DNA from: a virus
DNA length: 64,000 nt
IMG/VR virus record: IMGVR_UViG_3300017782_000001
Reading direction: 5' to 3' (one strand)
The translations under genes and the position numbers were made by a program. Under the pieces are notes generated by a model. That model searched no databases, had not been told where the DNA came from, and saw nothing but the letters and a program-made list of their open reading frames with translations. How positions within the stretch are numbered: position 1 is the stretch's first letter; each line of letters begins with the position of its first letter. Below, piece by piece: positions 51,179 through 64,000 of the stretch.

Positions 51179-51567
51179 GAAGTAGATCTATCATGCATAG
51201 CTAATGCAATAATTCCATAATGAACAACTTTAAGAAGGTCTGCTCGGTTTAGACCTTCTTTTTTTCCATATCGCTGAGAGTACTTAAGTACATTACCTAA
51301 AGCGAATCCCATACCATGACCACAGTCTTCAATGATCTGTGTAGCTTGATACTTGCCTTGTGAGTAATGAGCATCGTATGTTCCGTCAATATAAGTCTTA
51401 ATTTCTTTTAGAAGATCACCTTCATTAAAAGCGTATTCAGGATCTGGACCTACGAGATTAATAATATAGTCTTGATCAGTCGCAAACTCTTCAGTTGATG
51501 AATCAAAGTTAAATTTGATTTGACGATATTCGTCTTCCACCGCAGCGCCAGTGTATTTAATTGTCAT
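51175..51567 (-). CDS. DUF3310-like (T7 gp1.7-like) protein
   Basis: HY...GF.LGNVLKY..RYGKK...DL.K..HY. Confidence 0.75.
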   Translation of the reverse strand: MTIKYTGAAVEDEYRQIKFNFDSSTEEFATDQDYIINLVGPDPEYAFNEGDLLKEIKTYIDGTYDAHYSQGKYQATQIIEDCGHGMGFALGNVLKYSQRYGKKEGLNRADLLKVVHYGIIALAMHDRSTS

Positions 51568-52222
51568 TCGTGTACTCCATAATATTAGGGAAAATTTTAC
51601 TAATTGCTTCTGCGCAAGCTATAGCCAATTCAATGTGTTCTTTTTGAGTTCCATTAGCAGAACGCAAATCAATGTAATGAATCCAGCTTCGCAGAGTTCC
51701 ATTAACATACATGCGAGACATGGTACAACCTTCTGGTAATACCGCTCTTGCTTGTTCTTTTGCAATGCCATTATCAATTGCCCATTTATAAACTTCAAGA
51801 GATTTACTAATAACCTCCTGCTGATGAATATCCCACTGGTCTTGGATATGTAACGGTGCTGCATCAATCGAGTTCTGACGATTCTTTGGATCTTGCAATC
51901 GAGCTCCACGTTTAACAAATAAAAGATCCTGTGTAGGATCAGCATATCGCTGGCTAAACTCTTGAAATGAGAATGAACGGTGACGTAAGAGTTGACGACC
52001 AATATCTCGTGTAGTTTCAATCTCTAGGCAAGCAGACACCATTTCGAAAGGCGACCAATGTTTGTGTTGTGCAAGATAATGTAGCAATTTTGTCGACGTT
52101 TCCTCGTTAATTTGGTTTGAGGGATTCGAGACACGGGCGCAATAAGCGATAAGTTCTTGGACATCGTTACCGACATGTAAATTCTCCGTTGTTTGCGAGT
52201 AGCTAATTAATCTAGCGTTCAT
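51557..52222 (-). CDS. thyX: flavin-dependent thymidylate synthase
   Basis: HWSPFE, RHRSFSFQEFSQRY, EQARAVLP. Confidence 0.96.
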   Translation of the reverse strand: MNARLISYSQTTENLHVGNDVQELIAYCARVSNPSNQINEETSTKLLHYLAQHKHWSPFEMVSACLEIETTRDIGRQLLRHRSFSFQEFSQRYADPTQDLLFVKRGARLQDPKNRQNSIDAAPLHIQDQWDIHQQEVISKSLEVYKWAIDNGIAKEQARAVLPEGCTMSRMYVNGTLRSWIHYIDLRSANGTQKEHIELAIACAEAISKIFPNIMEYTNDN

Positions 52223-53135
52223 AGTGAGACCTTTTATAATATTCATCTAAGTTTTCTATTTTATTGTAATGATCAAGTGCTTTTTCGAAAATTAGCCTTT
52301 GACCTTTTTTATCCGGATGAGGATCAAATAAATCAGGATGATGTTTAGTTTTTGTTGTAACCATTATGTTTTCATGGTATCCTAAAACATTCACATTTTT
52401 TCTAAAGCCATTTTTAATATCATCTTTATAAAACTCGTGAAGTTTATTTGGTGTAAGTCTACGAGGTACATACGAAAACATACCATTAAAGTCATACGTT
52501 GTAGAACATAATATATTTTTATTTATGTATTTAATATTAGATTTTTTTTCTACATATGGTTTTAAGAATTGATTTGAAAATCTTTTGCCAATATAGTTAT
52601 ATCTAAAATATCCATTAAACTCTGGCACTAGTTGCATAATAATTAATTTAATATTTCGTCTATCACAAACATCGTGTAAAGCTAAAATGTAAGATACAGT
52701 TTCATCAATAAAATATGGAATATTGTAATGGTCAATATAAGAATATCCTGCTAAGTCATCTATTTTCAATTCTTCAATATTTTTCCCTACTTCAGCAAGA
52801 TACCTGCCATCAAAATTATCTGGTAATTGATGGTGAGTTGCTACGTTCATAAATTTAAGAGTTTTGCCGGCAGTATTACTGATACTGTCTTCTCTCATAT
52901 ATTTCTTTTTAACAAACTCAAATCTATCCCACCCAGTTAATCCTAAAACAACAGTGTCAATTTCAGGATTTTTCTGTAACTCAGACATAGTAATTCTAAA
53001 AATATACTTATTACCTACACCTTCCATACCTTTATTGATGAGAGGTTTATTTAATTCTTTTGACAAGTGTTCTGGCCAAGGAACATCTCCTTCGTACCTT
53101 TTACACGTAAAACTGCAGCCAACTGCTAACAACAT
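52212..53135 (-). CDS. SGNH-hydrolase-like protein
   Basis: AVGCSFT, WP, N.G..G.GN, DPHP. Confidence 0.55.
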   Translation of the reverse strand: MLLAVGCSFTCKRYEGDVPWPEHLSKELNKPLINKGMEGVGNKYIFRITMSELQKNPEIDTVVLGLTGWDRFEFVKKKYMREDSISNTAGKTLKFMNVATHHQLPDNFDGRYLAEVGKNIEELKIDDLAGYSYIDHYNIPYFIDETVSYILALHDVCDRRNIKLIIMQLVPEFNGYFRYNYIGKRFSNQFLKPYVEKKSNIKYINKNILCSTTYDFNGMFSYVPRRLTPNKLHEFYKDDIKNGFRKNVNVLGYHENIMVTTKTKHHPDLFDPHPDKKGQRLIFEKALDHYNKIENLDEYYKRSHYER

Positions 53136-53233
53136 TAGTCATCATCCGATTCATAAATAAAATCATGAACTTTGTTTTTATTTCTAAAAATATACCACCG
53201 GGTTTTAATAGTTAGCCACAATTTTTTGATCAC
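53135..53233 (-). CDS. small basic protein (32 aa, ends DFIYESDDD)
   Basis: GTGA overlap with helicase stop, TAATG overlap with next gene. Confidence 0.6.
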   Translation of the reverse strand: MIKKLWLTIKTRWYIFRNKNKVHDFIYESDDD

Positions 53234-54603
53234 AGCTTAAACCCTTGAAATTTTTCTGCACTAACACGTTCAGCAGTAGCAGATTTATCAAACACCGGTG
53301 TATCGTCCATTAGTGTTTGCTCACCTTCTTCAACATCATACAATCTCATTTTAGCTCGATCTACTCCAATTACAAACCGCTTGTATTTTGTTGGATCATT
53401 ATATCTATTCTTAAGCTGTTTGACCATGAGTTGACCTTGTTGCTCCAACTCTTCAGTTGAAATAATAGCAAACATTAGATCGGCCGTTGCGGGTAATCCA
53501 AAAGACTCACTTGTATCTTCAAGCCCAACATCCGAGTTACTAAAACCAGAACGAGTCGTTTGCGTTGCAGAGAAGACCGGTACGTTGAACTCGACCGCAA
53601 GGCCACGTAACTCTTCAGCAACTGCTTTAATGTAGGTGTATGAATTGATCGATCCTCCCATGCCTTTCATTCTAGAACTTGAACAAATATTTAGATAATC
53701 AATAAAGATAATATCAGGTTCAAATGCACGCTTTAGCTTAAGCTCATTTAATAGCGCGCGGAAATGGCCAGCATGAGCTGAGCCAGTAGGATATTCTTTA
53801 ACAATTAACTTACCATTTGTTTTAGTTGATAGGTCTGCCACTTTAGTAGAAAACTGATCCTTAGTCATTTTATCTAGCTGATCAATTGGAACGTTAAGTA
53901 AATTAGCATCAATACGTTCAGCAATTCTTTCTTCAGCCATTTCCATCGTAATATAAAGAACATTACGACCTTCTACCAAAGCGCCACTAGCAACATGACA
54001 CATGAATAAAGACTTGCCAACACCAGTACCTGCAAGGGCAATGTTAAGTGTTTTATTTGGTACACCACCTTTTGTAATTTTATTGAGATATTCAAGATCA
54101 AACGGTATGCGATCTTCTTCTTTGTTATAAAATTCCCAACGTTCTTCAGCTTGTTCAACATAGTCGTGACCTACATTTGTATCAAAGGCAACACCAAGTG
54201 CTTTAGTAAGTAAATCTGGTAATGATCCTTTTGTTAATGATTCGTGTTTTCCATCGATGATAGAAATTGATTCCATGATTGCTATATGCAATGCACGATC
54301 TTGACACCATTTTTCTGTTGAATCAATTAGCCATGTTTCATCAACTGTGTCACCATCAAACAAGGTTTGAGCAACATCCATAGCCATGGAATATTGCTCA
54401 CCTTGAATGTCTGACTCAGTAATTTCAACTAAGAAACTTTCTCGTGTTGGAAGCTTATTATACTTTGCAACATACTTTCCAGCTTCTTTGAACAGATTTC
54501 TATACGGCCCCTCAAAATAATCAGGTTTAACGAAAGGCAATACTTTACGCATATACTTTTCATCGGTCAATAGGTTTCGTAATATGGTCTGTTCTATTTT
54601 CAA
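53230..54603 (-). CDS. 41: T4 gp41-like replicative DNA helicase
   Basis: AGTGVGKS, ITMEMAEE, IDYL, ATQTTR, SESFGLPATAD, KNRY. Confidence 0.96.
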   Translation of the reverse strand: MKIEQTILRNLLTDEKYMRKVLPFVKPDYFEGPYRNLFKEAGKYVAKYNKLPTRESFLVEITESDIQGEQYSMAMDVAQTLFDGDTVDETWLIDSTEKWCQDRALHIAIMESISIIDGKHESLTKGSLPDLLTKALGVAFDTNVGHDYVEQAEERWEFYNKEEDRIPFDLEYLNKITKGGVPNKTLNIALAGTGVGKSLFMCHVASGALVEGRNVLYITMEMAEERIAERIDANLLNVPIDQLDKMTKDQFSTKVADLSTKTNGKLIVKEYPTGSAHAGHFRALLNELKLKRAFEPDIIFIDYLNICSSSRMKGMGGSINSYTYIKAVAEELRGLAVEFNVPVFSATQTTRSGFSNSDVGLEDTSESFGLPATADLMFAIISTEELEQQGQLMVKQLKNRYNDPTKYKRFVIGVDRAKMRLYDVEEGEQTLMDDTPVFDKSATAERVSAEKFQGFKL

Positions 54604-55031
54604 TCGAGTAATCCTTTTGCTCGTAAATCTGCACGAATTTTAGTAGCAGAAATGTTATGAATTTCATTGCCAAGATCATGTTCAGTAAAGGTGTAACCAA
54701 CTCCACGTCCATAACTAATATCAACAATGTTTGGTACTACCATTATAACATAATCGTCACCACAAGTAAACCCCTCTTCTCCAAGATTTTTTACAATATT
54801 ATCTTGAACTTGAAGAATATCAAAAGGATTATCATCTTGCCCAGGCACACGAGAATTAGCTTCACGTTTTTCTGGTACTTGCCTAATCATAATACAAACT
54901 TGGCCAGTTATAGCAAAACATCTTTTGAATAATTCTGTATGACCAGCGTGCCAAGGTTGCCATCTACCAAGCATTTGTACTGTAGGATTTAATTTATCAA
55001 ATCTACCATTTGAGTTAACATATTCTGACAT
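54600..55031 (-). CDS. small HIGH-family nucleotidyltransferase
   Basis: GRWQPWHAGH, NP, ISATKIR. Confidence 0.8.
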   Translation of the reverse strand: MSEYVNSNGRFDKLNPTVQMLGRWQPWHAGHTELFKRCFAITGQVCIMIRQVPEKREANSRVPGQDDNPFDILQVQDNIVKNLGEEGFTCGDDYVIMVVPNIVDISYGRGVGYTFTEHDLGNEIHNISATKIRADLRAKGLLD

Positions 55032-55034
55032 ATT

Positions 55035-55535
55035 CTACTCCTTATTTTTAAGAAAGTTAGGAACAAAATCGCTATCACCAAATACTTGTGCTAAGCCACT
55101 ATCGTTGTACTGAGGAATTTCAATATTCTTTGCAAACTCTTCTATTTCTTTATCAGACATATAAGAAGTTACTTCATAATAAGCTCCTGCTTCAGTACCA
55201 TTTGGTTTTTCAAACATTTTATTTGTGTCGTCATACCTACCTTCATCAAGAGTGTTTACCCAGATTAAAACATCAGCATCAAAAATATTACGTGTTTCTA
55301 CTAAGGGGCAAACAAAGTCACATATAACTGTACGTTCTTCTCCGTCTTCAAAGTCTGCAATGTTACGCATTCTTTCTGCTTGGCGCAGTCTTGCTTGAGG
55401 ACTAAAGTCCCAATCGTTAGCCATACCTCTAACTTTATCTGCGTTATACCACGCACATTCGGGTAAAGCTTTTTGCAGTCTTTCGCTTAGCCAAGTTTTA
55501 CCAGCACCCGGCAAGCCCATTACTAGAATTTTCAT
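55035..55535 (-). CDS. cysC: adenylylsulfate kinase-like
   Basis: GLPGAGKT, AD.VR, DFS...R..Q, FVCP, FEKP. Confidence 0.75.
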   Translation of the reverse strand: MKILVMGLPGAGKTWLSERLQKALPECAWYNADKVRGMANDWDFSPQARLRQAERMRNIADFEDGEERTVICDFVCPLVETRNIFDADVLIWVNTLDEGRYDDTNKMFEKPNGTEAGAYYEVTSYMSDKEIEEFAKNIEIPQYNDSGLAQVFGDSDFVPNFLKNKE

Positions 55536-55846
55536 TTTCTCTCCGTTAAAATTACTTCGTCTTTTGTTAAAGCGTTTTCCAAAATATCATGTAGAATAGA
55601 TCCACACTCATCTTGAAAAGGAACGTAGTCAGGAGTTAAATCTTTATCCGGACTACTTGCGATTGTAAAGTTAAAGTGCAATGCACCTTCTTTACCATCA
55701 ACAGAAATGTTGCCATATCTAACAACTGTTTCTGAAAATTCTCCAGTTAGAATACGAATATCCCATGCTTGTTCTGCATCCGGTAATTCAGATGCAGGAA
55801 TGATTTCGTAATCAAGGCCTTCTGATTTTTTATCTAAATTAATCAT
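55532..55846 (-). CDS. gp40-like protein
   Basis: Position between uvsX and 41; no strong motif. Confidence 0.5.
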   Translation of the reverse strand: MINLDKKSEGLDYEIIPASELPDAEQAWDIRILTGEFSETVVRYGNISVDGKEGALHFNFTIASSPDKDLTPDYVPFQDECGSILHDILENALTKDEVILTERK

Positions 55847-56894
55847 TTGCTTCTTCTACAATTTCATCCATAGAAACAATTGATTCTGAACCAATTGCAT
55901 ATTGTTTATTTACAAAATCTTTGAAGTCAGTTTCTTCTAAAATTGGTTTCCAAAATTCTGCTTTTAGAGTATCTTTTTCTCTGACCTTGGCATCCATAAG
56001 CTCGCCAGTGCTACGGTCAACGTGACAGTACCAACCATTAGAAGGCTTAGCAACATAGTTACCAGCAAGACCAACGGCGAGCAAACCACTATAAGGCTCA
56101 ACCCCACCTTCCCAAGAAACTGAGATAGGAATTTTTGATTTTTCTTTAACATAACGGCTTTTCTCCACATTAATTACGAAGTGATAGCCTTTAATTTCTG
56201 TACCTACTTTATTTTGTTGGCGACCAAGAATCCAAATATTATCGGCTGAATAATATATGCCAGTACCACCAGAAACAATTGCTTTAGGGAACAAACCAAT
56301 TTCTTGATATGTATGATTAACGGCTAGTAATGGAATATTTTTCATATTAAGATATGGTGTACACATACGAAACAAACCTTTAAGGGCTTTAGCACGTGTC
56401 ATATCTGCTACTGATTTTTCATTTAGTGCATCTTCCATTTCTTTTTTAGATGCTAGGTTACCAATTGAATCAATAACAACAATAACCTTATCGCTTCTGT
56501 CAATATTTTCGAGCTGATGTATTAAATCAAACTTCAGTTCTTCCACATTTGTAATTGGAGTATGTAGTACACGATTGGTATCAATACCAAATTGAGTAAA
56601 GTAACTCTGAGGACTACCAAACTCAGAATCATAAAAAAGCATAACAGCATCTTTATGTTGCTTTAGATATGCTCCAGCCATAAGCAAAGCAAATGACGTT
56701 TTGAAATGTTTAGATGGACCGGCAAGTACAGTAAGTCCTGGAGCTAAACCTCCATCAATAGAACCAGACAAAGCAACGTTAACCATAGGTACGTCTGTTG
56801 GTGTCATATCTTTTTCAGTAAAAAATTTAGATTCAGCCAAAATTTCTGTATGACCAAGTCGTGAGTTTTTCTTAAGCTTGTCCATTACTGACAT
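55839..56894 (-). CDS. uvsX: RecA-like recombinase UvsX
   Basis: AGPSKHFKT, YDSEFG, DSIGNLAS, NHTY, GGTG. Confidence 0.96.
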   Translation of the reverse strand: MSVMDKLKKNSRLGHTEILAESKFFTEKDMTPTDVPMVNVALSGSIDGGLAPGLTVLAGPSKHFKTSFALLMAGAYLKQHKDAVMLFYDSEFGSPQSYFTQFGIDTNRVLHTPITNVEELKFDLIHQLENIDRSDKVIVVIDSIGNLASKKEMEDALNEKSVADMTRAKALKGLFRMCTPYLNMKNIPLLAVNHTYQEIGLFPKAIVSGGTGIYYSADNIWILGRQQNKVGTEIKGYHFVINVEKSRYVKEKSKIPISVSWEGGVEPYSGLLAVGLAGNYVAKPSNGWYCHVDRSTGELMDAKVREKDTLKAEFWKPILEETDFKDFVNKQYAIGSESIVSMDEIVEEAND

Positions 56895-56963: not shown

Positions 56964-57563
56964 TTATTTTCTAACATACGCATCTATGCCATAAGCCATT
57001 ACAATATTACTATTATGGCGTTCCATATAGTCCACCTGGTCCATTGTAATCTCGCCTTTGTCTAGCTTTGCTTTAATACCTTTATCCAAATATCGATGCC
57101 ACTTCATTGGTACGATATTAATGTTATGAATCATTGCTAGTGGTGTATTTCCTTGATTAAGTCTTGACATTTCTATACAGGTATCTCTATGAAACATGTT
57201 AAATGTTTCTGCCATAATAGGTAACTTATGAGAAGGGTCTTCCCAATAATGATCATGTCTTACATGTGGTATTTCTATTTTAACAAAGCATCCATCTTTA
57301 CCACACCTATATATTTCTTTCATACATTCAATAAATTGTTCGTAATCAAGATGTTCTAAAATATGATAAGCATGAATTTCATCAAAGTAATCATCAGGGA
57401 AATCCCATTGCTGTGAAATGTCCATAACCTTATCAGGGTTACACGTAGAAGTGATGTCTACGTTTATCATTCCTTTGATTTTTTGAGTGCTACACCCTAA
57501 ATTAATTTTAACTAATTCAGGTGGTTTATCATTTAGCCACATTTCATGCCTCCATTCTGCCAT
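56964..57563 (-). CDS. SAM methyltransferase (type 11-like)
   Basis: INLGC, NVD, HILEHL, DPSH. Confidence 0.8.
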   Translation of the reverse strand: MAEWRHEMWLNDKPPELVKINLGCSTQKIKGMINVDITSTCNPDKVMDISQQWDFPDDYFDEIHAYHILEHLDYEQFIECMKEIYRCGKDGCFVKIEIPHVRHDHYWEDPSHKLPIMAETFNMFHRDTCIEMSRLNQGNTPLAMIHNINIVPMKWHRYLDKGIKAKLDKGEITMDQVDYMERHNSNIVMAYGIDAYVRK

Positions 57564-57564
57564 A

Positions 57565-58755
57565 CTACATAAAGACTTCTAATGTGTTAGGCTCAGATTC
57601 ATACCAAAAGGTTTGTGATTTATTGTCTTGAATTGCAAAGTTAGATCCAACCAATTCAATATCATCTTCAACAAATCTTTTAACGTTTGCAGCCATGTCA
57701 GATGCTGTTGTAACTGGAACATTCTGACAAATCATATTTAGATTTTTTACTCCGCCAACCAATTGAAAGTCTTTAGGCATTTTCATAATATCTAAACATT
57801 CTCTAATTGACAAATATCTATCAGCATCTGGGTGTGTAAGCATAATAGGCATATGACCTACAAAGGCTCCAATGTAATCCTTTGGGATTTCAGTAGTCTT
57901 ACGCATAATGTTACCACCTGCTTTTAACTTATCTCCCATACGAATACATTTTTGAGAATGACTTTCGTATCCTTCTTTTATCATCCACTTAGACATATCA
58001 TAATAGTTACCACCGTTATCTTCAAAGTAATGAAGAACATTAGTAGTTTTTTCTATTCTTTTAGCAAATTCTATATGATCAATTCCACCTAACATTTCTT
58101 TTAAGATGAATTGATAAAAAGGATTGTCTGAAGGCTTTTCCTTTTGCACAATGATTTTAGACATAGGATCTTCATCATTTCTTGCAGAAGATCTAATTTG
58201 GTCTTCAATCTTCATATGTGGTCTTTTATAAAATTCGAATTTAGGTACAGCCTTTCCTTTCCAAAAGAAAAAGAATGCTCTATCACGAATTTGACTTAAT
58301 CCATGAAGCAATGATTTTGTTTTATACAAACTAAACGTGTATCCATTGTCTTTGGCGAGTTGTCTTAATTGTTTTACAACAGGCTCACCCATTTTAGATG
58401 CAAGTCTTGGTGCATTCTCACCCCACAATACTTTAGGTTGTACATTTTCAAGAACGTATTGAGAAGATTTAATCATCCAGTCGTTATGTTCGTGATCAGA
58501 GCGTGAACTAACACTAAGACTAGACAAACCTGCGCAAGGACAAACAGAATTGACCACGTCCACTTTAGAAGCGGTATGAGATACTTCATCAAGTTTATAG
58601 TAAGGAATACGATTCCCATAATGATTAAGAAGTTGGCTATCATTTGCTTCAAATCCCGAGTATGATAAAACGTATTCGGGTTCATTACCAAACACGTTTT
58701 CCATAGCAAAAGTTTCACCGCCTATGAGCGGAACAATACTTGCATAACTAGTCAT
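57565..58755 (-). CDS. C5-cytosine DNA methyltransferase-like protein
   Basis: CPCAGLS (motif IV), ENAP (VI), Q.R.R (VIII), R.LS.RE (IX), NVP (X); motif I divergent (PLIGG). Confidence 0.75.
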   Translation of the reverse strand: MTSYASIVPLIGGETFAMENVFGNEPEYVLSYSGFEANDSQLLNHYGNRIPYYKLDEVSHTASKVDVVNSVCPCAGLSSLSVSSRSDHEHNDWMIKSSQYVLENVQPKVLWGENAPRLASKMGEPVVKQLRQLAKDNGYTFSLYKTKSLLHGLSQIRDRAFFFFWKGKAVPKFEFYKRPHMKIEDQIRSSARNDEDPMSKIIVQKEKPSDNPFYQFILKEMLGGIDHIEFAKRIEKTTNVLHYFEDNGGNYYDMSKWMIKEGYESHSQKCIRMGDKLKAGGNIMRKTTEIPKDYIGAFVGHMPIMLTHPDADRYLSIRECLDIMKMPKDFQLVGGVKNLNMICQNVPVTTASDMAANVKRFVEDDIELVGSNFAIQDNKSQTFWYESEPNTLEVFM

Positions 58756-59584
58756 AATTTACATTCTGTTCTTTCTCTCTAGAATCCTTTTCATACGTTG
58801 ACCTAATTTTATTATTGGCTGTAATAACGTCTTTAAGGATAGAGAATTCTGGATCAAAGTATGATAAAGCTTTTGTATCTTTAGGGAAACAAGCACCACC
58901 AAAACCGCGCTTCCCATCAAAGCCAGGTACAATAGTGTGGCTATGACCAATCCTAGGATCATTGGCAATAGCAGAAATAATCCGGTTATAATTTCCATGG
59001 CCGTTAACAGTATCGTAAAACTGATTGAACCAGAGGACTTTTGTAGCGAGGAAACTGTTGATTCCATATTTGATAAGGCTTGCTTCAGCAATTGACACAT
59101 GGAAGACAGGACATGGACGGCAAAGCGAACAGGTTTCGAAAAGCTCTTCGATGAATCTACAAGTGCCTGGGTCACCACCGAATACGTGCATTTTAGGATT
59201 AATAAAGTCTTCATTTGCATTTTTTTCAGTAAGGAATTCAGGGTTATAAACAATTCTATCTCTAGCTAAATTTGCTAGCTCCATCATAATATCAGGAGTC
59301 ACTGTAGATTTAACTACAACAAAACCTTTTGTCTTATCTATTAGTTCTTTAACTACCTTTGTAACAATACTTGCATCGATTTTTCCGTCATCTGACATTG
59401 GTGTAGGTACTGCAACAAAAGTAACATCAGGATCAAATTTTGTTAAGTCGTCTATAGTTGTATCAATATTAGGATCTACAATAAACTTCTTTACATCACG
59501 TTGACTAAAGCCATAGTCAACAGCTTTACCTACAAAGCCGTGACCAACAATGCCAATCAAAGGAGTTCTAGTATGATTAAACAT
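58748..59584 (-). CDS. ugd: UDP-glucose 6-dehydrogenase (short form)
   Basis: GHGFVG, VPTP, KSTV, NPEFL, K...N...A, GFGGACFPKD. Confidence 0.9.
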   Translation of the reverse strand: MFNHTRTPLIGIVGHGFVGKAVDYGFSQRDVKKFIVDPNIDTTIDDLTKFDPDVTFVAVPTPMSDDGKIDASIVTKVVKELIDKTKGFVVVKSTVTPDIMMELANLARDRIVYNPEFLTEKNANEDFINPKMHVFGGDPGTCRFIEELFETCSLCRPCPVFHVSIAEASLIKYGINSFLATKVLWFNQFYDTVNGHGNYNRIISAIANDPRIGHSHTIVPGFDGKRGFGGACFPKDTKALSYFDPEFSILKDVITANNKIRSTYEKDSREKEQNVNYD

Positions 59585-60546
59585 TAATTGACTCCATAAT
59601 ATTTTTTGTACCATGTAATAAATTGACTTACACCTTCTTTAATAGAAGTAGTAGGTTTATATCCAAGTTTTTGAATTTTAGTTGTATCTGACCAAGTTTC
59701 AGGAGTATCGGCAGGATGCGCTGGTGTAAGATTTCTTTCAGCTTTACGTCCAAGATTTTTTTCAATCTCATCTACAAACTCAACCAATTCTACTTGCTCA
59801 CCATAACCAATACAGAAAACTTCATGGTCAACTTCTTGATTATCATTAAGAATATTTTCAGCTACAATCTTAACGCCTTGTACAATATCATCAACGTAAG
59901 TAAAGTCTCGTTTCATATCACCATAGTTGTATAGATCAATAGGCGTACCTGCTACAATACCATCAGCAAACTTAAACAGTGCCATATCTGGTCGACCATA
60001 AGGACCATAGACAGTAAAGAAGCGAAGACCAGCAGATTTTACAACAGTGCTGTGTGCAAACTGACATTCGTTTACATACTTAGACCAACCATACGGATTG
60101 TTTTGTAGGGCTGGACGATCATCTTCATTCCACGGCAAAGGCTGGCCATGCATGACACATGAGCTTGATGCGTATACAATCGGAACTTTATTTCTTTCAG
60201 CGCCTTCAATAAGACGTTGTGTACCTGAAATATTAGTATCAATATATGGCTGTGGTTCTGCCATTGCATGTCGTGGATTTGCATATGCTGCAAGGTGAAT
60301 CACTAAGTCTACATTTTTTAAGATACTATGAAAATTTACATTTTCAATATTACCAACAATTATATTTTCTGGATCTAATCCATTAGCAATAAGTAAAGCT
60401 TCTCTATCATGCTTAAGCTTTGGATCGTAGTAATTGTTAAAGTTGTCAATACCGCTAACGTGATAACCTGCATCCATTAACTTTTTTGCTGTGTGGTATC
60501 CAATCATTCCGGCAATACCGGTTATAAAAATCTTTTTAGGTTTCAT
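59584..60546 (-). CDS. UDP-glucuronate 4-epimerase-like SDR
   Basis: TGIAGMIG, YASSS, Y..SK, RFFTVYGPYGRPDMA, RDFTYVDD. Confidence 0.88.
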   Translation of the reverse strand: MKPKKIFITGIAGMIGYHTAKKLMDAGYHVSGIDNFNNYYDPKLKHDREALLIANGLDPENIIVGNIENVNFHSILKNVDLVIHLAAYANPRHAMAEPQPYIDTNISGTQRLIEGAERNKVPIVYASSSCVMHGQPLPWNEDDRPALQNNPYGWSKYVNECQFAHSTVVKSAGLRFFTVYGPYGRPDMALFKFADGIVAGTPIDLYNYGDMKRDFTYVDDIVQGVKIVAENILNDNQEVDHEVFCIGYGEQVELVEFVDEIEKNLGRKAERNLTPAHPADTPETWSDTTKIQKLGYKPTTSIKEGVSQFITWYKKYYGVN

Positions 60547-61772
60547 ACGAAAAACTCCTCTAGTCCCTGTGATTGATTGTCTGGTGTTTTGTCAATTTTA
60601 TTGAATATATCAGGGAATGACACATCCGGTCCATTGTGCGATGCATAATATTCATAAGCCATTTCACGCCATTCGTCACGCATTACATTATCTTTTCTAA
60701 GCTTATTTATGATTTCAATAGTTTCTGTCCAATCGCTACCTACTTCGCCTGCCCATATCGTACCAGTGTTTTTATCTGCAGTAAGCCTATTGCCAGTTTG
60801 CAAGTGTGTACAATGATCACCAAAAGCTTTTCTAAAAATTGGAACTACACCAACAGCAGCAATTTCTAAGTGAGTAAATTCAATAAAGTTTTGAATGTAT
60901 TCAGGTTGAAGAGTTGTCAACTGAAAACCAAAGCCACAGCGTGACATACGTTCTAGCATTTCAGCATGTTTGAATGCACCGAAAACATAAGCTTTTCCAC
61001 CGGGTGATGTTTGAACATCAAAGTCTTCTGCCATTTCGTGGAATTCAAATTTTTCGCGGATATCAACAAACTGAATTGATTTTTCCATTCCTTCTAATGT
61101 ATACAAAGGATCAGGCAAACTTTTCTGCAAGTCGAACATAACATCGAAACCTTTCCAGTATGCAGACCTGCCAATCCATTTCAAGTGATTAGGATCTTGA
61201 TCTTCAATAGGTTTCCAATATTGTTTACGAATGCTTTCTACATTAACACCATTACAAAAGCTATATGAACTAGCTTTAGCACCAAGATTTCTACAGTAAT
61301 CCATAAAAGGACTTTTAGTAGAATATGATAGAATAACGTTTGCAGATTTGATAACGTCATCAAGTAAAGCATTACGCTTGATTGACATCATTTTGTGATC
61401 GTGTTGAATCATAACTTTTTTAGTCGTGATTCCATTAATCAACTTACCAAAGTTTTCAATACAATCATCAGGGTGACCTTTAGAAGGTAGTGAACCAATA
61501 AGTACTACATCAGCATTATTGCAATCTTCAACAATTAATTCAGTGCCGCAGATCGTATCACCACGAGCAGGTTTATTACCCCACTTCCACTGTTTAATAT
61601 TTTCATCTAAATAATGAGATGCGGCACGTGTCCACTTTTTATCACTAGGTGCATAGACTGTATAATCCCACCCCTGTTTTAGTGCCCAGTCTTTTAGTTC
61701 GAGTGTAAATCGAGTTACGCCGCAGCCTTCAATGCCGCGGCCTAAAATATGTACAACTTTCATACTTTTCAC
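60543..61772 (-). CDS. agt: T4 alpha-glucosyltransferase-like DNA glycosyltransferase (GT-B)
   Basis: N-terminus GRGIEGCGVTRF...DW...DKKWTR matches T4 a-gt RGLEGCGVTKF; QHDH, IGR...WKG, EFTHLE. Confidence 0.82.
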   Translation of the reverse strand: MKSMKVVHILGRGIEGCGVTRFTLELKDWALKQGWDYTVYAPSDKKWTRAASHYLDENIKQWKWGNKPARGDTICGTELIVEDCNNADVVLIGSLPSKGHPDDCIENFGKLINGITTKKVMIQHDHKMMSIKRNALLDDVIKSANVILSYSTKSPFMDYCRNLGAKASSYSFCNGVNVESIRKQYWKPIEDQDPNHLKWIGRSAYWKGFDVMFDLQKSLPDPLYTLEGMEKSIQFVDIREKFEFHEMAEDFDVQTSPGGKAYVFGAFKHAEMLERMSRCGFGFQLTTLQPEYIQNFIEFTHLEIAAVGVVPIFRKAFGDHCTHLQTGNRLTADKNTGTIWAGEVGSDWTETIEIINKLRKDNVMRDEWREMAYEYYASHNGPDVSFPDIFNKIDKTPDNQSQGLEEFFV

Positions 61773-61792
61773 CTGTCTTTATTATAATAGTT

Positions 61793-61822
61793 ATTATATC
61801 ATATATATGAGGGTTTGTACAC
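61793..61822 (-). promoter_or_regulatory. early promoter for agt operon
   Basis: GTGTACA-17-TATAAT. Confidence 0.7.
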
Positions 61823-61829
61823 CAAAAAA

Positions 61830-62324
61830 TTAATCTTTTTTCGGTTTAAGCTTAACAACGTTATCGTTAGATGGTCCGTCATCCAAATCAACAAATTCAT
61901 ATACTATACCTGCTTCGTCAAACATTTCAAATGTTAAGCTTGCAGAGTTTTTCCAATCATCTGGAATAACCTGATCAACCATTACTACTCGTTCAATGCC
62001 TACTTGGATAATACCCTTAGCACAATCGCTACAAACAGGTAAACCATATACGTATAGTGTTGAACCAGCAAGAGATACACCATTCCATGATGAATTATAT
62101 ATGACATTCATTTCTGCATGAACTACATATTTGTACTTTGTTGGTCTATCATTATATCTTTCAGGAAAATCTTCAATGTCTCGTGGAAAGCCGTTATATC
62201 CTTGAGATAAAACTTCACCGTTATGACCAACAGCTACTGCACCAATTTTTCTTGAAGGATCTTTAGACCATGAAGCAATATGCTTAGCCAATTCAAGATA
62301 ACGTTTATCCCACTTATCATACAT
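61830..62324 (-). CDS. cd: dCMP deaminase
   Basis: SKDP...GA, GYNG, HAEMN, VCSDC. Confidence 0.92.
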   Translation of the reverse strand: MYDKWDKRYLELAKHIASWSKDPSRKIGAVAVGHNGEVLSQGYNGFPRDIEDFPERYNDRPTKYKYVVHAEMNVIYNSSWNGVSLAGSTLYVYGLPVCSDCAKGIIQVGIERVVMVDQVIPDDWKNSASLTFEMFDEAGIVYEFVDLDDGPSNDNVVKLKPKKD

Positions 62325-62668
62325 TACGATTTACCACCTGATGTTTTACGTTTAATATCATTGTGATTGAATTCAGCCCAATACAATTCAAAAGCAACGC
62401 CGTCTTCAATTCCAACAAATTGGTGATAGAGACCAGGCTTTACTTTTGTAAAATCGCCAGGATACAAAATAGTTTCATCAACTAATCCTTGATCTGCTTG
62501 CCATACTCTAATCAGCATAGTGCCTGACTCTACATAAAAGCCATTCCACTTAAATTCATGCTTATGTTCTGAACATTGCATTCCTGCTTTATATTCAATT
62601 CGATGGAACTCACATGCACCGTTTGCTTCAACTAATTCTGTTTGACCCCAAACTTTTCCTGCAATCAT
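62324..62668 (-). CDS. cupin (mannose-6-P isomerase-like)
   Basis: KVWG, CSEHKH..K.NGFYV.SG, PG.YHQF. Confidence 0.8.
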   Translation of the reverse strand: MIAGKVWGQTELVEANGACEFHRIEYKAGMQCSEHKHEFKWNGFYVESGTMLIRVWQADQGLVDETILYPGDFTKVKPGLYHQFVGIEDGVAFELYWAEFNHNDIKRKTSGGKS

Positions 62669-63366
62669 GACTTTACCAATTCAAAATGTTTTTCATAAAC
62701 ATGCAAGTTTTGTACTTGCCATGTTATACTACCAACTTTCATATCTTTACGATAGTCTGCGTCAGCAGCACTCATCATGTATTCATAGTTGTATGCTCGA
62801 GTTAATTCTTCTAAAACATACTGCTGCCAAGCATAGTCATTCTTGTATCCGAACACAACATCGTTTGAGCGCATTTGGACCACAGCGTGGATTGAGCCAT
62901 CGCGTAAATAATAAGTGACAGCATTAGTACATATAAAATCATTTTTATCATGTGCATTAAACTCTGACCAAATTGAAGGGCGATTATAAATCATAGAAGC
63001 ACGACGGCTATCCATATTATATAGCAATTCATTTAGAGCATTATCGAATTGACGATAATATGTGTCACTAAAAATTAGTTGACCATAGTTACTATTAATT
63101 TCACCATGCGAGTTTGCTGCGTACTGCCATGCTTTAGGTGGCTCATCACCATAAGGAATGTCATTAATGTTTGTTGAGCAACCAATGTACCAATCGATTT
63201 CTGCATCAATATAGTCTTGATTAGGCGTGCCGAAAATAGCAGGCTCATCTGCAACAAAGCAAGCGCCAAGCATTTCAATAGTTTTTTGACCGGTTCGATC
63301 TACAGTAAACCTTTCACCTTTAAGTGCGTCTATAAAAAACTCACGAATATCACTTACGCTTTGCAT
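62665..63366 (-). CDS. 42: dCMP hydroxymethylase (T4 gp42-like)
   Basis: NSNYG, DFICTN, MRSNDVVFGYKNDYAWQ (Asp at the dCMP-specificity site), NLHVY. Confidence 0.88.
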   Translation of the reverse strand: MQSVSDIREFFIDALKGERFTVDRTGQKTIEMLGACFVADEPAIFGTPNQDYIDAEIDWYIGCSTNINDIPYGDEPPKAWQYAANSHGEINSNYGQLIFSDTYYRQFDNALNELLYNMDSRRASMIYNRPSIWSEFNAHDKNDFICTNAVTYYLRDGSIHAVVQMRSNDVVFGYKNDYAWQQYVLEELTRAYNYEYMMSAADADYRKDMKVGSITWQVQNLHVYEKHFELVKS

Positions 63367-63766
63367 TACTTACTCTCCTTCTTAGACCACTAGTTGAAAA
63401 TCTGTGGTCACGCTTATTAAAATACAATTCAATATCTCGATGTTTACAAATATCTCTACCTGTAAAATCTTTATCTCGGTATTCTTCACCAAGAATTCTT
63501 ACATGGATAGTTTTCATTTGTAGAATATCTTCTAAGTCAGCTTCGTAGTAATAAGGTATGATTTCATCTACATATCTTACTGCAGCTAGCTGCGTGTGTC
63601 TTTCTACAATTGATTGGATAGGCGTGTTTTTAGTGTCACGATCTGCGGTTGGATCTATTTGCAAGGCGCAAATAAGATAATCACATTTAGACTTTGCTTC
63701 ACGTAGCATTTCAATATGGCCAGCGTGAAGCAAATCAAACGTTGATGCTGTAAGGCCTATCTTCAT
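63350..63766 (-). CDS. glycerol-3-phosphate cytidylyltransferase-like (TagD)
   Basis: FDLLHAGH, ER, YVDE, RDH.FSTS. Confidence 0.85.
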   Translation of the reverse strand: MKIGLTASTFDLLHAGHIEMLREAKSKCDYLICALQIDPTADRDTKNTPIQSIVERHTQLAAVRYVDEIIPYYYEADLEDILQMKTIHVRILGEEYRDKDFTGRDICKHRDIELYFNKRDHRFSTSGLRRRVSNAKRK

Positions 63767-64000
63767 TTCTTTGGCCTATTAAACATATCGTTATTAGGAT
63801 CCTGTCCATCCATTTCACCACGCATATATGATACAGCAAAAGACGCATAATTAATAAGATCCATAAACGTATCTTCAAGAGATTCGTGATTAGGTTCTTG
63901 ACCAGACTCAAGTAAAGAAGCAGCACGCATCATTTTACCATGCATGATATCGTAGATAGTATCTACACCTCGACGATAGTGCATAGCTTGCACTACGTTA
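63763..64000 (-). CDS. nucleotide-modification-associated all-alpha domain protein (5' end outside window)
   Basis: K..R....ESLEDTFMDLINYASF. Confidence 0.6.
   Translation of the reverse strand, partial: NVVQAMHYRRGVDTIYDIMHGKMMRAASLLESGQEPNHESLEDTFMDLINYASFAVSYMRGEMDGQDPNNDMFNRPKK

Follow-up and report, generated by a model that had tools for sequence, protein, structure and literature searches.

We analyzed a 64,000-nucleotide stretch of DNA from an uncultured marine T4-like phage (IMG/VR record IMGVR_UViG_3300017782_000001; the whole stretch is called the window) and focused on nine tightly packed minus-strand genes at positions 56964-63766, within the replication module. These genes appear to encode a pathway for pre-replicative hypermodification of cytosine, and the best reading of the module, which we hold with moderate confidence, is that the phage DNA carries galacturonosyl-5-hydroxymethylcytosine (galacturonosyl-hmC). 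We found no close relative at the DNA level among sequenced phage isolates, and sequence past the edge of the window was taken from a 99-100% identical IMG/VR record (L003).

In the order in which they would be transcribed, the nine genes encode a small nucleotidyltransferase, a dCMP hydroxymethylase of the T4 gp42 type, a small cupin, a dCMP deaminase, a DNA glycosyltransferase of the AGT family, an extended short-chain dehydrogenase/reductase (SDR) that resembles UDP-glucuronate 4-epimerases, a short Ugd-like nucleotide-sugar 6-dehydrogenase (short Ugd), an enzyme with the C5-cytosine methyltransferase fold (the C5MT-like protein) and a small class-I methyltransferase. They are followed by uvsX (55839-56894) and the gene for the gp41 helicase (53230-54603). 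All of the genes listed in an initial annotation of this DNA were found where it had placed them, with strong scores; the dCMP deaminase gene, between those for the cupin and the AGT homologue, had been missing from its list. From the AGT gene through the small methyltransferase gene, neighboring genes overlap or touch at their start and stop codons, as that annotation had described, and the AGT stop and the SDR start overlap by 4 nt. The likeliest start of the AGT gene is the ATG at 61763. A 57-nt spacer ahead of it carries a promoter-like TGTACA-N17-TATAAT with an extended TG (61793-61821, minus strand; a consensus match only); the initial annotation had put the operon under one promoter. 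The same motif with the extended TG is also found ahead of uvsX (56954-56926, minus strand), and it may be the early or middle promoter type of this phage.

We compared the module with about 230 IMG/VR loci that were retrieved by searching with four proteins of the module (AGT homologue, short Ugd, SDR and C5MT-like protein), and scored every gene in each locus. These loci are relatives of one another, chosen by similarity to the window, and the counts given below describe one lineage and not independent events.

By all available sequence criteria, the thymidylate synthase homologue of the module (62665-63366, minus strand) is a 5-hydroxymethyl-dCMP (5hm-dCMP) synthase. It matched the T4 gp42 structures 1b49 and 1b5e over its full length (residues 3-231 against 7-225; E 3.6e-68) and was 52% identical to T4 gp42 by tblastn. 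The catalytic Cys is present, with FICTN aligned to FMCTN of T4. Not all T4-like "gp42" homologues make this product; some yield 5-hydroxy-dCMP, and a diagnostic rule distinguishes the products by three positions in ThyA numbering: Asp at 177 indicates choice of dCMP, an acidic residue at 143, a position tied to water access, a non-methyl product, and Asn at 169 the 5-hydroxy enzymes (PMC13326640). The window enzyme has Asp at all three, identical to T4: at 177 (N177D, with KND aligned to RND of T4), at 143 (L143D, three residues ahead of the Cys) and at 169 (RSND, like T4). Based on this T4-type set of residues and the match to T4 gp42, we assigned the protein as a 5hm-dCMP synthase, in agreement with the gp42-type hydroxymethylase named in the initial annotation. 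An RB69-type 5-hydroxy-dCMP synthase was ruled out by the retained Asp169. Two "thymidylate synthase" chains, 9iqu and 9iqc, which we take to be the 5-hydroxy-dCMP synthase of phage HY126, matched the window protein only at E 3e-5.

The supply of dTMP appears to be kept separate from this step. The dCMP deaminase gene (61830-62324, minus strand; PF00383, E 9e-19) comes after gp42 in nearly all of the related loci, and its product would give dUMP for ThyX. The ThyX open reading frame (ORF), which had been expected to supply dTMP, lies at 51557-52246 on the minus strand (PF02511, E 2.6e-44 in the 99-100% identical IMG/VR record, mapped to the window ORF).

The glycosyltransferase of the module is a full-length member of the AGT family, as its earlier description as an a-gt homologue implied. 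The protein (60543-61763, minus strand) matched PF11440 with 176.5 bits (cut-off 25; E 1e-51) over profile positions 1-353 of 355, matched phrog_2888 at E 3e-73, and was 33% identical to the T2/T4 a-gt products across 96% of its length. Thirty-seven columns were invariant among 33 AGT sequences including that of T4, among them the GRGxEGCGVT loop, D115/H116, R204, K209, E306 and E311 (T4 numbering).

The SDR encoded directly behind the AGT homologue (59584-60546, minus strand; PF01370, E 3e-40) is well supported as a UDP-glucuronate 4-epimerase by sequence comparison. Its best solved relatives were 5u4q (E 1e-69), which is a dTDP-glucose dehydratase by entry label only, the Bacillus cereus UDP-glucuronate 4-epimerase (6zl6/6zld; full-length similarity, E 3e-42) and MoeE5; two characterized UDP-glucuronate 4-epimerases are among these nearest relatives, and one of their entries showed identity in the 50% range. 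In the B. cereus enzyme, a Thr/Ser network binds the carboxylate of glucuronic acid and Arg185 alone binds that of galacturonic acid (PMC12338863). The equivalents of T126/S127/S128, T178 and R185 are all present in the window protein, with SSS aligned to TSS and FFTVYGPYGRPDMA aligned to YFTVYGPRQRPDMA, and the Tyr-x3-Lys catalytic pair (Y149 and K153 in B. cereus) is kept. We use the label UDP-glucuronate 4-epimerase, which the initial annotation had given in "like" form, because all of the carboxylate-handling residues and the catalytic pair are conserved. Assignments as an ADP-heptose 6-epimerase or GalE were rejected; the NCBIfam matches were far below their cut-offs, and the comparison with PDB structures and the residues favored a UDP-glucuronate 4-epimerase. 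The difference from the B. cereus protein is one of setting: the window SDR is encoded by a phage, in a DNA-modification operon.

The epimerase is coupled to DNA glycosylation. Among the 57 distinct copies with enough upstream sequence, 53 had a DNA glycosyltransferase gene ending less than 400 nt upstream, and in two of the four exceptions an AGT gene was about 0.7 kb upstream. The transferases ahead of the epimerase were of four types: a second type of AGT, 33% identical to the window type (43 copies), the window type itself (type 1; seven copies), a BGT-like protein of 374 amino acids (two copies) and, in L050, a TET-associated GT-A glycosyltransferase (TAGT; one copy, E 8e-49). The 374-amino-acid protein, from locus L056, gave no match in sequence and profile comparisons with AGT, BGT, Pfam and the PDB, and was recognized as BGT-like by fold search alone; its AlphaFold2 (AF2) model had a mean confidence (pLDDT) of 90, and the six best PDB matches were all T4 beta-glucosyltransferase. 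The epimerase gene also remains beside AGT in loci without Ugd (L107, L110, L142, L151, L155 and others). Because 53 of 57 copies directly follow a DNA glycosyltransferase gene, and the transferases are of four types, we conclude that the epimerase acts in connection with DNA glycosylation.

The genes between gp42/deaminase on one side and C5MT/uvsX on the other occupy a hypervariable slot for cassettes. Some loci have AGT alone there, and others have AGT with the epimerase and Ugd, a BGT-like gene with those for a UDP-galactopyranose mutase and TAGT, TAGT alone, or a myo-inositol-phosphate-synthase-like gene with those for a 5-hydroxymethyl-dU (5-hmdU) DNA kinase-domain protein and an FkbM methyltransferase. 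The alternative occupants are all hallmark DNA-hypermodification genes, which argues that the AGT homologue and the epimerase of the window belong to DNA chemistry and not to surface glycans.

Several of these alternative cassettes are of interest in their own right. In three loci (L193:4155-7998, L197:1227-5633 and L218:4185-8001) the slot has a myo-inositol-1-phosphate-synthase-like gene and a gene for a protein with the helical domain of 5-hmdU DNA kinase, and the FkbM methyltransferase gene is in the slot of L197. This cassette looks like an undescribed, kinase-based hypermodification of hmC. Locus L173 (5121-8001) encodes a BGT-like protein that is 35% identical by tblastn to the modeled protein of L056, along with a UDP-galactopyranose mutase (by Pfam) and an ORF of about 270 amino acids. 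In L221 (7180-8004) a TET-associated GT-A glycosyltransferase of about 270 amino acids (by Pfam) is encoded alone, directly before the C5MT-like gene, and ORFs of about 270 amino acids have the same position in L230 (4736-5551) and L185 (1714-2526).

Our preferred reading, galacturonosyl-hmC, would connect these genes as follows. The gp42 homologue would make 5hm-dCMP before replication, while the dCMP deaminase and ThyX would hold the dTMP supply separate, and hmC would be incorporated into DNA at replication. The AGT-family enzyme, a GT-B glycosyltransferase, would then glycosylate hmC on the DNA, and its donor would be UDP-galacturonic acid made by the adjoining UDP-glucuronate 4-epimerase. 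The source of UDP-glucuronic acid would be the short Ugd, provided that UDP-glucose is still a substrate for it, and otherwise the host. The product, most likely alpha-linked if configuration is retained as in T4 AGT, would be an anionic base with a nucleoside of 433 Da. For the steps after 5hm-dCMP synthesis, we rely on gene linkage and precedent.

The precedent comes from Pyle et al. 2023 (bioRxiv 10.1101/2023.12.21.572611), who reconstituted clusters of phage glycosyltransferases and partner epimerases and found that glycosyltransferase activity was dependent on the epimerase; two of their metavirome clusters yielded hexuronic-acid 5hmC (433 amu). The initial annotation had predicted uronic-acid-glycosylated hmC as a new modification. 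The tie between the epimerase and DNA glycosylation speaks for the uronic acid, and hexuronic-acid 5hmC is not a new chemical kind because it has already been made from phage genes. What is new here is the predicted route, in which a GT-B AGT would act on pre-replicative hmC, and the phage group. The subclass II clusters of Pyle et al. likewise have a DNA glycosyltransferase gene directly beside a sugar epimerase gene, but their transferases are GT-A enzymes (TAGT/JGT-like) and their 5hmC is made after replication by a C5-methyltransferase and TET, whereas the window encodes a GT-B AGT and a pre-replicative gp42 homologue. One related locus, L050, does pair TAGT with the epimerase and the short Ugd.

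Several observations weigh against galacturonosyl-hmC, and the first concerns the donor of the transferase. The AGT of T-even phages uses UDP-glucose. We found no signature of donor specificity in the 33-sequence alignment, which covered AGTs from epimerase-linked and epimerase-free loci as well as T4, and that part of the initial prediction gained nothing from the transferase itself. Twenty-five fixed columns separate the epimerase-free AGTs from the window type, most of these differences are conservative, and there was no convincing change toward carboxylate binding. The epimerase-free copies were 66-70% identical to the window AGT. These findings favor a rather unlikely alternative, in which the DNA carries plain glucosyl-hmC or another neutral hexosyl-hmC, the AGT homologue uses a host UDP-hexose, and the uronic acids made by the epimerase and the short Ugd go elsewhere, for example into glycans of virion proteins or the host surface. 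Against this alternative stand the position of 53 of 57 epimerase copies directly behind transferases of four types, the persistence of the epimerase with AGT where Ugd is absent, its place within the AGT operon, where codons overlap, and the need of epimerase-paired transferases for their epimerases in the work of Pyle et al.

One AGT position attracted attention. Lys119 of the window protein (V109 in T4) is Lys in every epimerase-linked AGT and hydrophobic in the epimerase-free ones that were compared. We dropped this residue as a donor signature, since Lys is also found in two groups of AGT without the epimerase or Ugd nearby.

The second concern is the short Ugd (58748-59614, minus strand), which the initial annotation called a UDP-glucose dehydrogenase. 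The protein is 278-288 amino acids long, with a likely start at the ATG at 59584 that gives 278, and aligns to residues ~60-310 of Ugd structures that have 400-450. The NAD-binding and central domains are in place (PF03721 and PF00984 only). The NAD-binding glycine motif and all of the catalytic residues are kept, including the Cys of GGxCxPKD (GFGGACFPKD aligned with GYGGSCFPKD of 4a7p). The protein ends about 38 residues past this Cys, its gene overlaps the next by 8 nt, and the C-terminal UDP-binding domain (PF03720) is missing. This is not damage, because the short two-domain form is shared by the best 120 of 7108 homologue clusters (E <= 1e-5), which have 270-294 amino acids and PF03721 and PF00984 only. 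The enzyme very likely still oxidizes a primary alcohol to a carboxylate. With the UDP-binding domain missing, synthesis of UDP-glucuronic acid by the short Ugd is uncertain.

The short Ugd gene belongs, with those for the nucleotidyltransferase and the cupin, to an older trio that is not specific to the hmC pathway, because many loci carry the three directly before uvsX without gp42, AGT, SDR or C5MT genes. This distribution also weighs against galacturonosyl-hmC and counts in favor of neutral hexosyl-hmC, as does the classification of rfaE and Ugd of pelagimyophages as lipopolysaccharide (LPS)-type auxiliary genes (PMC7029224). The same study described a pelagimyophage group with "two thymidylate synthases and a dCMP deaminase", a description that fits the gene set of the window.

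The properties of the trio also bear on a different and quite improbable explanation, in which a uronic or related sugar reaches the DNA by another route, either from a non-UDP nucleotide-uronic acid that the trio makes from a sugar phosphate or through oxidation of a DNA-bound sugar by the short Ugd. The complete catalytic residues of the Ugd together with its missing UDP-binding domain would fit such a route, as would the small nucleotidyltransferase gene, which is directly ahead of the short Ugd in many hmC-free loci and nearly always precedes it there. In locus L051, genes for a phosphomannomutase and two cupins are ahead of the nucleotidyltransferase/Ugd pair. The residue set of the epimerase is that of UDP-glucuronate 4-epimerases and points to a UDP-linked substrate, the hmC genes split the trio in the window, and we know of no precedent for a Ugd that acts on a DNA-bound sugar; all three argue against this route.

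Locus L051 (6871-11775) encodes, in order, a canonical thymidylate synthase, two cupins, the phosphomannomutase, the nucleotidyltransferase, a dCMP deaminase, the short Ugd and then the SDR. A pathway from a sugar phosphate to a nucleotide-uronic acid, formed by the cupin, nucleotidyltransferase and short Ugd, is hinted at by this layout.

Two arrangements without an adjoining transferase are a third point on the negative side. In L051, no glycosyltransferase gene adjoins Ugd and SDR. Phage C48C1 has SDR and Ugd with no adjoining glycosyltransferase gene, and no gp42, AGT or TAGT. We considered C48C1 as a clean counter-example and found it only a weak one, since an operon for a TET/JBP protein, a BGT-like transferase and a galactofuranose (Galf) mutase is located 14 kb away. 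This operon (L232:3584-7031; OQ984149.1, 49583-53030) is annotated as three hypothetical proteins and encodes a Tet/JBP 2-oxoglutarate (2OG)-Fe dioxygenase, the BGT-like transferase (profile E 4e-114), which is the only DNA-type glycosyltransferase of the phage, and a UDP-galactopyranose mutase. By its gene content, the operon is a system for glycosylating DNA after replication, in the sequenced, gp42-free genome of a Kyanoviridae phage with no host on record.

A last point bears on how far cytosine is replaced: homologues of T4 gp56 (dCTPase) and gp1 (kinase) were found neither in the window nor among about 84 loci and five related records, which are partial (20-52% complete). A candidate substitute is encoded just upstream. 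A MazG/PRA-PH-like nucleotide pyrophosphohydrolase gene (L003:4980-5408) is directly after the DNA polymerase gene, 2.3 kb upstream and outside the window. A DUF1599 gene immediately ahead of the nucleotidyltransferase gene runs off the window edge, with its 3' part at 63763-64000 on the minus strand (PF07659, E 5e-7); the whole gene (L003:7684-8010; 108 amino acids) matches PF07659, "nucleotide modification associated domain 1", at E 4e-7. The MazG-like protein and the DUF1599 protein match the N-terminal and C-terminal parts of one profile, phrog_18404, and a DUF1599 domain is also encoded ahead of gp42 in L056. This pair may be a dCTP-clearing stand-in for T4 gp56.

Throughout this phage group, gp42 is constantly accompanied by the C5MT-like gene (57565-58755, minus strand). 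Among the 48 distinct copies that had 7 kb of upstream sequence, 46 had gp42 upstream in the same locus. The initial annotation had named a C5-methyltransferase-like protein, and the family holds (PF00145, E 2e-15, with the match beginning only at profile position 58), as do the fold and the catalytic motifs, though the S-adenosylmethionine (SAM) motifs I and X are altered. The AF2 model (pLDDT 85) had as its best fold matches CmoX (8yf3; Foldseek E 1.5e-12) and M.HhaI. Catalytic motifs IV (PC), VI (ENAP) and VIII (QxRxR) are present and invariant, and the canonical SAM motifs I (FxGxG) and X (GN) are replaced by an invariant PLIGG and CQNVP. The SAM ribose could still be bound by an invariant Asn-Asp that follows strand 2, which would allow use of SAM.

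CmoX of Synechococcus phage S-B43 is a DNA cytosine C5-carboxymethyltransferase (8yf3; PMC12783734). It is similar to the window protein in that both are phage proteins with the C5-methyltransferase fold and a changed residue at the position of HhaI Asn304, and different in that the window protein has Gln where CmoX has Arg350. We ruled out that the C5MT-like protein is a CmoX; it has VCPC and not the SPPC motif, Gln in place of Arg350, and no CmoA (TIGR00740) match was found in the five related records.

The constancy of this partner, whose catalytic residues are all kept, and the missing gp56-type and gp1-type enzymes could mean that hmC is partial or the sugar step minor, and that the main protective mark is placed by the C5MT-like enzyme on the remaining cytosines. 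We consider this very unlikely. The MazG-like and DUF1599 proteins could act as a dCTPase, phage XG4 (below) has a gp56 homologue beside its C5MT-like gene, and the searched records are incomplete. The reaction of the C5MT-like enzyme is the most interesting point of the module because C5 of hmC is already occupied. We think it doubtful, though conceivable, that the enzyme, which closes almost every hmC island of these phages and combines an intact Cys/Glu/Arg catalytic set with a conserved, rebuilt cofactor pocket, does more than cytosine methylation, by new chemistry on hmC or glycosyl-hmC or by transfer of a non-methyl group, such that the base is a further-tailored galacturonosyl-hmC.

Homologues of the C5MT-like protein were found in the cyanophage S-TIM5 group and in the Pseudoalteromonas phage vB_Psh_XG4. 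In XG4 (L035:199-7549, unannotated), genes for homologues of gp42 (43% identity), the C5MT-like protein (32%) and T4 gp56 dCTPase (40%) are within 7.5 kb, with the C5MT-like gene between the other two. A match to the AGT family was not found in the XG4 genome. XG4 is an isolate suited to study of the C5MT-like enzyme.

The small methyltransferase gene at the end of the operon (56964-57563, minus strand) is a lineage-specific addition. In loci fetched with the AGT, Ugd and SDR queries, it was found only where UvsX was at least 86% identical to that of the window. The protein is of the class-I type, as had been proposed, with weak profile matches: PF08241 was just above its cut-off, PF13489 and PF13649 were under theirs, and phrog_6636 and the PDB entry 3dli matched at E 2e-14 and E 2e-6. 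For this protein and for the C5MT-like one, the further methylation or substitution of the base that the initial annotation suggested is conjecture.

The module is closest in plan to the glucosyl-hmC system of the T-even phages. The two share a gp42-type synthase whose diagnostic residues are identical, as well as a dCMP deaminase and a transferase of the AGT family, and both have the order hydroxymethylase, transferase, uvsX and gp41; the order gp42, glycosyltransferase, uvsX and gp41 in the window parallels 42, b-gt, uvsX, 40 and 41 in T4, and the AGT homologue occupies the position of b-gt, between gp42 and uvsX. Unlike the T-even system, the window transferase is 33% identical to a-gt and is paired with both a UDP-glucuronate 4-epimerase and a short Ugd, a C5MT-fold protein is a constant partner, ThyX takes the place of td, and no gp56 or gp1 was detected in the records searched. 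The arabinosyl-5-hydroxycytosine pathway of RB69, DLP3 and HY126 (PMC13326640) is alike in that a thymidylate synthase homologue makes a modified dCMP and the phages encode nucleotide-sugar enzymes and DNA glycosyltransferases; the 5-hydroxy-dCMP synthases of that pathway carry D169N, in contrast to the Asp169 of the window enzyme, and the sugar genes differ.

If galacturonosyl-hmC is correct, the cytosines in the packaged DNA of an abundant group of T4-like phages of the ocean bear an acidic sugar. Homologous gene clusters for the genes of the module number from hundreds to thousands in public metagenomes. Such a base would alter the charge of the DNA, the efficiency with which viromes are sequenced and amplified, and sensitivity to nucleases that recognize modified cytosine, and pelagimyophage-like genomes would no longer be read as having "two thymidylate synthases" and auxiliary genes of the LPS type. 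The cassette slot, with its many alternative contents, is a natural library of DNA-glycosylation enzymes, and the constant C5MT-like partner is a defined problem in enzymology.

Two small genes flank gp42, as had been noted before. On one side is the cupin gene (62324-62668, minus strand), with a match to PF07883 just at the cut-off (E 3e-6) and to phrog_7851. On the other is the gene for the nucleotidyltransferase (63350-63766, minus strand), which resembles TagD and RfaE domain II (PF01467, E 6e-11; phrog_7878, E 1e-32); its matches to TIGR01518 and TIGR02199 were far under their cut-offs.

Between uvsX and gp41, two adjacent ORFs at 54600-55535 on the minus strand encode proteins of 166 and 143 amino acids, with starts and stops 4 nt apart. 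The first corresponds to the N-terminal part and the second to the C-terminal part of a single PHROG family, phrog_10255 ("kinase", 230 positions). Of the two, the 166-amino-acid protein is a P-loop kinase (AAA_18 or APS kinase-like) and the 143-amino-acid protein has a faint match to nucleotidyltransferases. This split or two-part kinase could be a nucleotide or sugar kinase.

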